In this document: positions 55,232 to 57,869 of the stretch, piece after piece
Position numbering within the stretch: position 1 is the first letter of the stretch
Layout: each line of letters opens with the position of its first letter
Source of the DNA: Dictyostelium discoideum
Lineage: Eukaryota
Length of the DNA stretch: 64,000 nt
Direction of reading: 5' to 3'
NCBI GenBank assembly: GCA_000004695.1
Contig: CM000150.2
Coordinates: 3,168,001 to 3,232,000, forward strand
Notes under the pieces: generated by a model
What the model was told of the DNA's origin: nothing
Seen by the model: the letters and a program-made list of their open reading frames with translations, nothing else
Databases searched by the model: none
Position numbers and translations under genes: made by a program

Positions 55232-57124
55232 TTAATTATCACTATCACTTTCGCTATCACTACTATAACTATCACTGTCGCTACTATAACTATCGCTATC
55301 ACTCTCTCCAGATTGAAAAGATGTACTCAAATTATTTTGGTTATTATTATTATTATTATTATTATTATTATTATTATTATTATTATTATTATTATTATTA
55401 TTATTATTATTATTATTATTATTATTATTATTGTCAGATGGTTGTTTTTGAGATGGATTATTAAAGGAAGCAATACTATTATTAGTACTATTGACAGGTC
55501 CATTACTTTTGTTGGTTGGTAAATTATTAAGTTTACTATTATTAGTATTGTTAGGAATATTGTTATTATTATTATTATTATTATTATTATTATTATTATT
55601 ATTGTTGTTATTATTATTATTAATAATAGAAGTATTGTTAGAAATGTTATTATTATTATTATTACCACCTAAAAAGTTTGGTGGTTGAACAGTTGTAGTT
55701 GGAGCAGATGGTCTTGCAGAAGATGATGGAGGCTTATAAGTTTTTGGTAAGAAACTAGAGCTATCATTTAGACCAATGCCTTTGCCATTGCTACTATTAT
55801 TATTATTATTATTATTATTATTATTATTATTATTATTGTTATTGTTATTGCTATTTGATTGAAATGGTGGTATGGTAGAAGCAGAATCATTCAAAGAAAA
55901 AGAAAGATCACCATCATTATTATTATTATTATTATGATTATTATTATTATTATTATTATTATTATTATTATTATTATTATTATTATTATTATTATTATTA
56001 TTATTGTTATCATCATCATTATCATTCCCAGTATTATTAAGGTTAACAGGGAATTCTTCAAATATGATATCTCCATCATCATCCTCTGTTTGTAGTTGTG
56101 GTGGTGCACTCAATATATCACCAGGTTTACCAAATAATTCTTCCTCTAATTCCATATTTATATCATTTAATTCATCATTTGTTGTATTATTGCTATTAAT
56201 ATAATTATTATTATTAGGCTTAGTATTTGTAATATTTGTTGATATTGATGCTGCTGTTGTAGTTGTTGTTGTAGTTGTTGTAGTTGTTGTTTCACAACCA
56301 ATCATATCTAAATCTTTTGCTAATAAATCGAAATCTTCTTTTGATTCTCTTAGACTATTATTGTTACTAAAATTTTTATTATTATTATTATTATTATTAT
56401 TATTATTATTATTATTATTATTATTACTTGAAGTATTTTTACTATTTCCAAATAAACTATTATTATTATTATTATTATTTGAACCTATTGTTGGAGTATA
56501 ATTTGGTTTTGAAGGATTAGAAGGTAAACTTTTACTGTTTGAAGGTAATTTAGCACCTCTACCCTTTCCGGTAGTTTGGGGTGGTGGACTAGTTGCTCTG
56601 TCATTGTTGTTTGTGGTAATTGGTAATTTTTTTGGTCTACCAGCCCTTTTACCTCCTTTTTTATTAGGTGGGGGCGGTGAGAATTTATTATCACTATCAT
56701 CACCAAAACTTGCTATATCTTCATCCTCTTGACTACTATTTAAATTATTGTTTATACTATTGCTATTATTATTATTACCACTGCTACTATTGTTGTTGTT
56801 ACTATGGCTACCTGTACTACTATTACTTTCAGCATCACTATCAAATGTATCATAATTACTGCTATTATTTGTATTACCATTATTATTATTATTACCATTA
56901 CTATTACCATTACTATTACCATTACTATTACCATTATTAGTACCATTATTATTATTATTATTATTATTTGTATTTGAGAAAAACATAGAAGATGATGGTG
57001 AAGATGATGAGGTTGATGATGAGGTTGATGAATGTATTGTTGGTTTATATTTATCATTTTTATTATTATTGACAGGAATATTTTCAAATGGATCATTATC
57101 TATTGATGCTAATAAATTTTTCAT
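55232..57124 (-). CDS. Asn/Ser/Asp-rich low-complexity ORF with an AT-hook-like GRPKK motif; probably the 3' exon of the EAF gene rather than an independent gene
   Basis: 630-aa track ORF that ends in SDSDSYSSDSDSYSSDSESDSDN*. It contains KKGGKRAGRPKKLP (AT-hook-like). An (ATT)46 tract lies immediately upstream, at 57125-57262 on the plus strand. Candidate acceptors ttattag at 57109-57110 (exon starts 57108) or caatag (exon starts 57099) join it in frame, in phase 1, to the EAF exon ending at 57394. EAF proteins typically end in a Ser/Asp/Glu-rich transactivation tail. Confidence 0.6.
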   Translation of the reverse strand: MKNLLASIDNDPFENIPVNNNKNDKYKPTIHSSTSSSTSSSSPSSSMFFSNTNNNNNNNNGTNNGNSNGNSNGNSNGNNNNNGNTNNSSNYDTFDSDAESNSSTGSHSNNNNSSSGNNNNSNSINNNLNSSQEDEDIASFGDDSDNKFSPPPPNKKGGKRAGRPKKLPITTNNNDRATSPPPQTTGKGRGAKLPSNSKSLPSNPSKPNYTPTIGSNNNNNNNSLFGNSKNTSSNNNNNNNNNNNNNNNNKNFSNNNSLRESKEDFDLLAKDLDMIGCETTTTTTTTTTTTAASISTNITNTKPNNNNYINSNNTTNDELNDINMELEEELFGKPGDILSAPPQLQTEDDDGDIIFEEFPVNLNNTGNDNDDDNNNNNNNNNNNNNNNNNNNNNNNNHNNNNNNDGDLSFSLNDSASTIPPFQSNSNNNNNNNNNNNNNNNNNNSSNGKGIGLNDSSSFLPKTYKPPSSSARPSAPTTTVQPPNFLGGNNNNNNISNNTSIINNNNNNNNNNNNNNNNNNNNNIPNNTNNSKLNNLPTNKSNGPVNSTNNSIASFNNPSQKQPSDNNNNNNNNNNNNNNNNNNNNNNNNNNNNNNNQNNLSTSFQSGESDSDSYSSDSDSYSSDSESDSDN

Positions 57125-57262
57125 TATTATTATTATTATTATTATTATTATTATTATTATTATTATTATTATTATTATTATTATTATTATTATTATTATT
57201 ATTATTATTATTATTATTATTATTATTATTATTATTATTATTATTATTATTATTATTGTTAT
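57125..57262. repeat. (ATT)46 microsatellite (AAT on minus strand)
   Basis: Perfect att repeat with a few att→gtt variants at the end. It lies between the EAF-domain exons and the S/D-rich ORF. Confidence 0.9.
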
Positions 57263-57361
57263 TGTTATAATTATTAAATATTTTTATTAGTATTAGTATT
57301 ATTATTATTGTTACTTTACAATAATTTGTATTTTTTTTTATTTTATTTTTTTTTATTTTTT

Positions 57362-57869
57362 TTAATATTTAAACCTACATCTGTTTGAATTACTATTTAA
57401 TTTCCTTATTACAGATGAAGAGCTTATTTGTCTCTCAAGTCTAAAAACACCATTTTCAAATATTAATAAACATTCCATCTCTTTACAAGGTTTATATGCA
57501 CCAAAGAAATCGAATTTCTCATTAGTTGATGTATGATTATGCTGTATATGAATTGAGCCTTGATTCATCTTTATTAACGCTTTACTTGTATCCAGACTCT
57601 TGGGTTTAAGATTATCTATTATAAATTATTATTATTATTATTATTATTTTTATTTATTATTATAATTGTTTTTTTTTTTAATTAATTTTTAAAAACAGTA
57701 GACTAAAAATATTTATATATTTATTAAAAAAAAAAAAAAAGTGATACTTACATTGTAATGTATGATATTGTTCATTATTAACAAAATCACTATCCCTCTC
57801 CATTGTGGGACCTATTTCAACATCATATGTCATATCATTCTCTGGTTGTTTAATATTTGATGTTGCCAT
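57362..57869 (-). CDS. EAF (ELL-associated factor) homolog, N-terminal EAF domain, 2 exons (+ probable third exon 55232..57108)
   Basis: Minus strand. Exon 1 is 57752..57869 (MATSNIKQPENDMTYDVEIGPTMERDSDFVNNEQYHTLQ), with a GTAAGT donor. The intron is 57616..57751. Exon 2 starts at 57615 (YNLKPKSLDTSKALIKMNQGSIHIQHNHTSTNEKFDFFGAYKPCKEMECLLIFENGVFRLERQISSSSVIRKLN). The motifs Y(D/N)xKPxSxDTS ... KxCxLI...G.(Y/F).LE...SSS match the EAF family. Exon 2 either runs to the stop at 57362, or it is spliced at a GTAATT donor after 57394 (phase 1) to the downstream S/D-rich ORF. Confidence 0.65.

Follow-up and report, generated by a model that had tools for sequence, protein, structure and literature searches.

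A probable three-exon EAF gene spanning an intronic AAT microsatellite in Dictyostelium discoideum

The window analysed here, 64,000 nucleotides of Dictyostelium discoideum contig CM000150.2 (positions 3,168,001 to 3,232,000 of the forward strand), contains on its minus strand a short spliced coding sequence (CDS) related to the EAF transcription elongation factors, followed by a long AAT microsatellite and then by an Asn-rich open reading frame (ORF). The question raised by this locus is whether these are two genes, as the AX4 reference annotation implies, or the separated parts of one. An earlier note on the same DNA had proposed a single three-exon gene made up of both ORFs, with the microsatellite in an intron, and this is supported by the homology of the tail, by the position and phase of introns in related species and by an annotation with a 743 aa product. 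Hence the span 57869..55232 (minus strand, 2638 nt; coordinates are those of the window unless another sequence is named) is very probably a single gene, encoding an orthologue of EAF (ELL-associated factor) of around 740 residues.

The EAF domain, the tail and their relatives

The first exon of the merged model (57752..57869, minus strand, 118 nt) begins with the ATG at 57869-57867, encodes the start of the EAF domain (MATSNIK...EQYHTLQ), with exactly the residues that open the annotated DDB_G0270900 protein, and ends in phase 1. It is followed by a 136 nt intron of 93% A+T (57616..57751, minus strand, GTAAGT...TAG) and a second exon carrying the remainder of the domain (57379..57615, minus strand, in the favoured version), the Pfam match to which stops near 57419. 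The second intron (57109..57378, minus strand, 270 nt, with a GTAGGT donor) is in phase 1 and closes with a TTATTAG acceptor, the AG of which lies at 57110-57109. Exon 3 (55232..57108, minus strand) comprises 625 codons and a TAA stop at 55234-55232; its product is a low-complexity sequence, 37% of which is Asn, containing conserved islands. Exons 1 and 2 would therefore supply the N-terminal EAF domain, and exon 3 a long, Asn-rich, presumably disordered tail with islands and a Ser/Asp/Glu end.

The exons at 57752..57869 and 57394..57615, in which the earlier note had recognised an EAF N-terminal domain, do indeed encode one. The match to Pfam family PF09816 (EAF) has an E value of 2.3e-12 and a score of 47.6 bits against a cut-off of 26, aligning residues 15-105 with profile positions 1-96 of 105, whilst residues 33-111 of the query match residues 28-110 of human EAF1 (PDB 7okx_O) with E=0.002. 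It is the 123 aa piece that gives the Pfam match; a scan of a whole 738 aa version of the protein misses the domain, because composition bias masks it. Joining 57869..57752 to 57615..57362 produces a protein of 123 aa that is exactly XP_646146/Q55DI5, the 'hypothetical protein DDB_G0270900' of D. discoideum AX4, and this exact protein can be obtained only with intron 1 removed. The reference and merged models are the same in exon 1, intron 1 and exon 2 as far as the intron 2 donor; however, the reference model runs past this donor to a TAA at 57364-57362 and leaves out the 625-codon third exon. As this read-through meets a stop that would lie within the intron, the AX4 model appears to be truncated.

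A donor and acceptor that join two ORFs in frame would be expected by chance about one time in three and carry little weight by themselves, hence the case for a single gene rests on comparative evidence: the identity of the domain, the homology of the tail, the conserved position and phase of the introns and an independent annotation of one gene. For the comparison of the tails, homopolymer runs of at least four residues were cut to three. In this collapsed form, the D. discoideum tail was matched by phmmer to that of D. purpureum with E=4.4e-22 and to the protein P0004 with E=6.2e-13; in the latter alignment, tail residues 305-498 correspond to P0004 residues 349-539, which fall well beyond the EAF domain of P0004. 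A profile built from the tails of four other species scored the collapsed tail with E=1.7e-20. The alignment of all five species contains an ordered series of islands, KFSPPPP...AGRPKK, ESKEDFxxLAKDL, DIxFEE[FY]PV, LFSLxDSxxIPPF and TTVQPPxF, then SFQS...SDSDS...SDSESDS.

An EAF-domain profile made from D. discoideum and D. purpureum was run exhaustively with HMMER against 1.84 billion representative proteins and returned 68 matches. The relatives nearest to this domain are long and carry it at the N terminus, and the expectation that dictyostelid orthologues would be single long proteins holds both for P0004 (545 aa) and for the 397 aa Acytostelium subglobosum protein XP_012751497 (P0005); another long relative is a 410 aa Ceratiomyxa fruticulosa Trinity transcript (P0006). 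P0004 is an uninterrupted ORF containing the EAF domain and the tail, present on four contigs (L002-L005) from four JGI samples. Each of these is 1.83-1.95 kb in length and ends only 66-171 nt past the ORF, so that they look like transcripts. As the domain and the tail constitute one ORF in this organism, no assumption about splicing is required there. P0003, a 1215 aa eukprot model, consists of an upstream PH-domain gene run into an EAF domain and a long tail, a fusion that is probably an over-merged prediction. The order of domains and of tail motifs is common to the D. discoideum protein and the dictyostelid orthologues XP_012751497 and P0004, but in D. discoideum homopolymer tracts have lengthened the protein, and the second intron bears the microsatellite.

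The structure of the gene is likewise conserved. In D. purpureum (L001, GL871035.1) there are the same three exons, with introns in phases 1 and 1: intron 1 lies at HTIQ|Y, exon 2 ends at ...SNSNK A|GTAAGT, and a 66 nt intron with a TTTTTAG|CG acceptor leads into an ORF that continues without interruption as far as the stop at 8041. This third exon (L001 6513..8041, plus strand, approximately 509 codons) lacks ATG, GTG and TTG throughout its opening 48 codons, which excludes a separate gene beginning at that point. The annotated D. purpureum EAF model, DICPUDRAFT_22775, is only 112 aa long and flagged as 'partial', with no gene called in the next 1.9 kb; the protein rebuilt from the genome sequence has 649 aa, and the same gene-model correction applies to this species. 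In A. subglobosum (L007, DF837591.1), the only set of GT-AG exons giving the annotated 397 aa protein has three introns. Two of these are in phase 1, one after HTLL|F, equivalent to the position of intron 1, and one of 70 nt after SSSHLKKQ|S, at the boundary between domain and tail. The HT[LI][QL]|[YF] boundary of exon 1 is therefore kept, in position and in phase, in two other dictyostelids, and the intron at the domain/tail boundary, present in phase 1 in both D. purpureum and A. subglobosum, is common to group-4 and group-2 dictyostelids. The remaining A. subglobosum intron (L007 4246..4331, plus strand) is in phase 0 and lies inside the EAF domain, after ...SVQYHNQN|; as D. discoideum and D. 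purpureum lack an intron there, it represents a lineage-specific gain or loss.

A look-up of the neighbouring 818 aa PH-domain protein identified a second annotation of the locus, in NCBI assembly GCA_054883475.1, in which a stretch 100% identical to 57869..55232 (2638 nt) is called as one gene with a 743 aa product, located on JBTAPE010000039.1 at about 1,710,034-1,712,671. This assembly is independent of the window; the two sequences differ at an A22/A20 homopolymer near 58556 (L006 12504) and at a T/C near 61581 (L006 9479), both intergenic; they are identical over the whole gene, including the perfect 135 nt (AAT)45 tract. When every GT-AG model having one or two introns was enumerated, two formal solutions emerged for a product of 743 aa, the only sensible one of which has intron 1 at 57751..57616 and intron 2 at 57378..57109.

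A number of observations weigh against a single gene. The AX4 reference annotation retains the short 123 aa model, and an in-frame ATG at 57124 makes a separate downstream ORF formally possible. P0003, P0005 and the GCA_054883475.1 model are predictions themselves, and the exon structure of the last comes from the enumeration, not directly from the annotation. Neither spliced junction was matched when contigs from metagenomes and metatranscriptomes were searched by pattern (0 matches), and no junction-spanning protein fragment was present in the protein collections searched. Amongst the sequence comparisons, raw BLASTP detected no significant similarity of the uncollapsed 624 aa tail to P0003, P0004 or P0005, an hmmsearch of all the ORFs in the window with the four-species tail profile did not list the tail, and a profile of the three non-Dictyostelium tails gave even the collapsed tail only -19.8 bits, an absolute score that is not significant.

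The raw comparisons fail because poly-Asn triggers the composition-bias correction of HMMER: the full-sequence score of the tail is -79 bits with this correction and 280 bits without it. The score of -19.8 bits is nevertheless far above those of 400 shuffles (maximum -49.7), and the same three-species profile detects the D. purpureum tail with E=2.9e-11. Word-indexed searches of a 5.8-billion-protein set, using the tail in full or with poly-N removed, yielded 8000 candidates and zero significant matches; this is not evidence of absence, because P0003-P0005, which are present in that collection, were also missed through saturation with low-complexity words. More generally, true homology of Asn-rich Dictyostelium proteins can be masked from BLAST and HMMER until their homopolymers are collapsed. 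Exact look-ups in a 15-billion-protein collection found no match to the 738, 743, 630, 584 and 357 aa D. discoideum forms, nor to the 649 and 461 aa D. purpureum forms, and P0001, looked up exactly in the contig index, likewise had no match.

Alternative donors and the probably intronic microsatellite

Two donors, at 57378 and 57393, can be paired with the acceptor at 57109, in phase 1 on both sides and without introducing stops. The earlier note had chosen the second of these, A|GTAATT, such that exon 2 would be 57615..57394 (222 nt), ending ...AAT A after ...KLN in phase 1, and intron 2 would be 57393..57109 (285 nt). The A+T content of the intron is about 94-95%. Joined in this way, the junction codon is A+CA, encoding Thr, and the 738 aa product has zero internal stops and the C terminus SDSDSYSSDSESDSDN. 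The pairing of this donor with the TTATTAG acceptor is in frame, as claimed; however, the more probable donor is T|GTAGGT, which lies 15 nt further downstream at 57378 and the use of which adds SNSNR relative to the 738 aa model and places Ser at the junction. The product, which had been put at about 750 aa, is thus 743 or 738 aa in length. The alternative peptides predicted at the exon 2/exon 3 junction are LNSNSNRSSIDNDPFENIPVNNNK and LNTSIDNDPFENIPVNNNK.

The 743 aa product of GCA_054883475.1 fits only the GTAGGT donor, use of which makes exon 2 end in SNSNR|, mirroring the SNSNK| of D. purpureum. In an anchored ungapped alignment to the D. purpureum donor context, GTAGGT matches at 21/35 positions and GTAATT at 14/35, relative to a background of 12.9 +/- 3.0 over 2653 GT sites; aligning the DNA of these exon/intron boundaries with MAFFT was of no help in such A+T-rich sequence. 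The GTAATT donor would instead place Thr-Ser at the junction, as the D. purpureum gene also does (ACA vs ACG), with 12 residues between RLER and the junction, nearer to the 10 of A. subglobosum than are the 17 resulting from GTAGGT. It is also favoured by a local census of donors: among eight inferred neighbouring introns, GTAAGT occurs three times, GTAATT twice, GTATGT twice and GTAAAT once, with GTAGGT in none of them, a point against our choice, albeit from a sample too small to separate the two. Nothing usable on splice-site statistics was found in the literature. On balance, splicing from GTAATT is the less probable, and as both donors are in frame, both could be used. The two neighbouring examples of GTAATT are in a 111 aa gene and in a profilin gene (L006 6793..7207 and 19732..20315), hence this sequence appears to work as a 5' splice site in the region.

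The merged model places the perfect microsatellite (57123..57257, minus strand, 135 nt) inside intron 2, in agreement with the earlier note, with the qualification that the run, itself real, contains 45 AAT units and not 46; Tandem Repeats Finder extends it to a 63-copy imperfect array at 57123..57313. That the tract at 57123..57257 is coding poly-Asn can be ruled out, as its translation in the downstream ORF's frame gives around 45 consecutive Ile residues, and for the same reason it is considered non-coding. The intron also holds the annotated stop (TAA, 57364-57362) and the ATG of the ORF track (57124-57122). The 630 aa ORF (57124..55232, minus strand) had been described as starting 240 bp downstream of the EAF-domain CDS; it is present, and begins 237 nt past the TAA. 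The acceptor had been placed just 5' of this ORF and its Met taken to be internal to the protein, but the acceptor AG sits 14 nt within the ORF, so the ATG is intronic and would be spliced out. Otherwise, what the earlier note said of the sequence is right to within a base or two.

Since the 66 nt intron of D. purpureum is free of the repeat, the (AAT)45 tract appears to have expanded in the D. discoideum lineage. The other AAT tracts of the window had been suggested to be intronic likewise; this is true of intron 2, but not in general, as several in exon 3 are coding. Long AAT-type tracts encoding poly-Asn are found there at 55341..55664, 55795..55855, 55916..56026 (37 units), 56356..56426 and 56872..56966. 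The reading frame therefore decides the meaning of such a tract, those of exon 3 giving Asn and that of intron 2 Ile.

It is also conceivable that one gene has two products, if retention of intron 2 or polyadenylation within it yielded a 123 aa protein consisting of the EAF domain only, with the AAT tract perhaps affecting the efficiency of splicing. Read-through of the donor reaches a stop after 5-10 codons, generating exactly the annotated 123 aa product, and the intron is unusually long for its neighbourhood (270-285 nt, compared with 70-177 nt in neighbouring introns), 94% A+T and rich in AATAAA-like strings. Such features permit this type of processing; however, the corresponding introns of D. 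purpureum and A. subglobosum are short and repeat-free, so that any regulation would be specific to D. discoideum; we consider it unlikely. A more elaborate proposal, that intron 2 is inefficiently or conditionally spliced, that the tail-less form coexists with full-length EAF and binds ELL as a dominant-negative or modulator, and that the length of the microsatellite tunes the ratio of the two, is more doubtful still.

The arrangement implied by the AX4 reference, in which a 123 aa EAF-domain protein and a 630 aa Asn-rich protein from the ATG at 57124 (with the predicted N-terminal peptide MKNLLASIDNDPF) are the products of separate genes, and the (AAT)45 tract falls in a 237 nt spacer, seems very improbable: it has in its favour that the shorter protein is a deposited one (XP_646146/Q55DI5), that the downstream ORF opens with an ATG and that AATAAA-like strings, ubiquitous in sequence of 94% A+T, are found past the TAA, but the 630 aa protein is absent from the protein collection under any obvious start, the first 48 codons past the acceptor in the homologous D. 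purpureum ORF include no start codon, P0004 has the domain and a homologous tail in one uninterrupted ORF, A. subglobosum joins them over a phase-1 intron at the same place, an annotation of identical sequence calls a single 743 aa gene, and all the longer EAF relatives have a Ser/Asp/Glu-rich C terminus that the 123 aa model lacks. The gaps that separate neighbouring genes on the same strand, of 734, 725, 838 and 379 nt, are also much longer than the proposed spacer.

Conserved islands of the tail and comparison with metazoan EAF proteins

In characterised EAF proteins, the N-terminal domain binds ELL, and RNA polymerase II elongation is stimulated. By virtue of its family membership, the D. 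discoideum domain should bind ELL and the resulting complex should stimulate elongation by RNA polymerase II. A search of the literature found no paper on Dictyostelium EAF or ELL, nor on DDB_G0270900 or GCA_054883475. The resemblance to metazoan EAF1 and EAF2 (PF09816; human EAF1, PDB 7okx/7oky) comprises the N-terminal domain, aligned to human residues 28-110, and a low-complexity region on the same polypeptide that ends in a Ser/Asp/Glu cluster. Such an ending had been attributed to metazoan EAFs in the earlier note, and the metazoan-like relatives P0042, P0049 and P0067 do end in ...LSESDSD; comparable clusters terminate P0003-P0011 as well. With exon 3 spliced on, as we infer from the orthologues, the D. 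discoideum EAF domain would share a polypeptide with a C terminus of this type, SFQSGESDSDSYSSDSDSYSSDSESDSDN (55235..55321, minus strand). The D. discoideum protein differs from those of metazoa in being about three times as long (743 vs approximately 260 aa), the excess being mostly poly-Asn, and in having the islands DIxFEEFPV, LFSLxDSxxIPPF, TTVQPP and KFSPPPP/AGRPKK, which are seen in dictyostelid-like sequences only.

In the five-species alignment, the first of the D. discoideum islands, KFSPPPP...KRAGRPKK (56627..56686, minus strand), combines a proline stretch with a basic GRP motif. It is followed by ESKEDFDLLAKDLD (56306..56347, minus strand) and by a pair of acidic/hydrophobic islands (55862..56074, minus strand), GDIIFEEFPVN at 56074..56042 and LSFSLNDSASTIPPF at 55906..55862, between which lies coding poly-Asn; the columns D460, I461, E465, P467 and V468 are invariant across the five species. 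TTVQPPNF (55673..55696, minus strand) then precedes the C-terminal cluster. The tail is probably disordered, and its short acidic/hydrophobic islands are of a kind found in activation and docking regions.

The GRP motif takes the form [KR]AGRP[KRP]K in D. discoideum, D. purpureum and P0004, and is degenerate in P0003 and P0005. The earlier note had termed it AT-hook-like. Like the AT-hook (Pfam PF02178), it has a GRP core with Lys/Arg flanks (KRAGRPKK in D. discoideum, KKAGRPRK in D. purpureum and KKAGRPPKK in P0004), but the residue preceding the core is Ala, not Arg. With the Pfam AT_hook profile, the D. purpureum motif scores 17.1 bits (E=0.0045), just short of the cut-off of 17.4, and the D. 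discoideum motif has no match; hence the motif itself is present, and its likeness to an AT-hook is a resemblance only. A lesser variant of the more doubtful proposal above, likewise improbable, is that the dictyostelid-specific tail, with its AGRPKK motif and acidic/hydrophobic islands, would let EAF dock directly to DNA or Mediator, a function that is not seen in animals.

Gene models and neighbouring features

The merged gene has already been called in another public annotation (GCA_054883475.1). This is a routine gene-model correction, of a truncated reference model of a known family. Its practical value is as an annotation fix, with no new biological question being raised. The D. discoideum (DDB_G0270900/Q55DI5) and D. 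purpureum (DICPUDRAFT_22775) models cover only the first 115-125 or so of approximately 650-740 residues, and consequently knock-outs, tagging constructs, proteomics databases and orthology tables built on them miss five-sixths of the protein. The breaking of gene prediction by long intronic A+T microsatellites is a general pitfall in the D. discoideum genome.

A scan for bacterial promoters and terminators, not relevant for a eukaryote, found nothing exceeding shuffles. Upstream of the EAF gene, at a distance of 734 nt and on the same strand, is the intronless gene encoding the 818 aa PH-domain protein (58604..61060, minus strand), and D. purpureum (L001 3002..5423) and A. subglobosum (L007 456..2657) have the same order, PH then EAF on one strand. 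On the other side, approximately 340 nt past the EAF stop codon, a tRNA-Thr with the anticodon AGT (54819..54890, plus strand) lies on the opposite strand.

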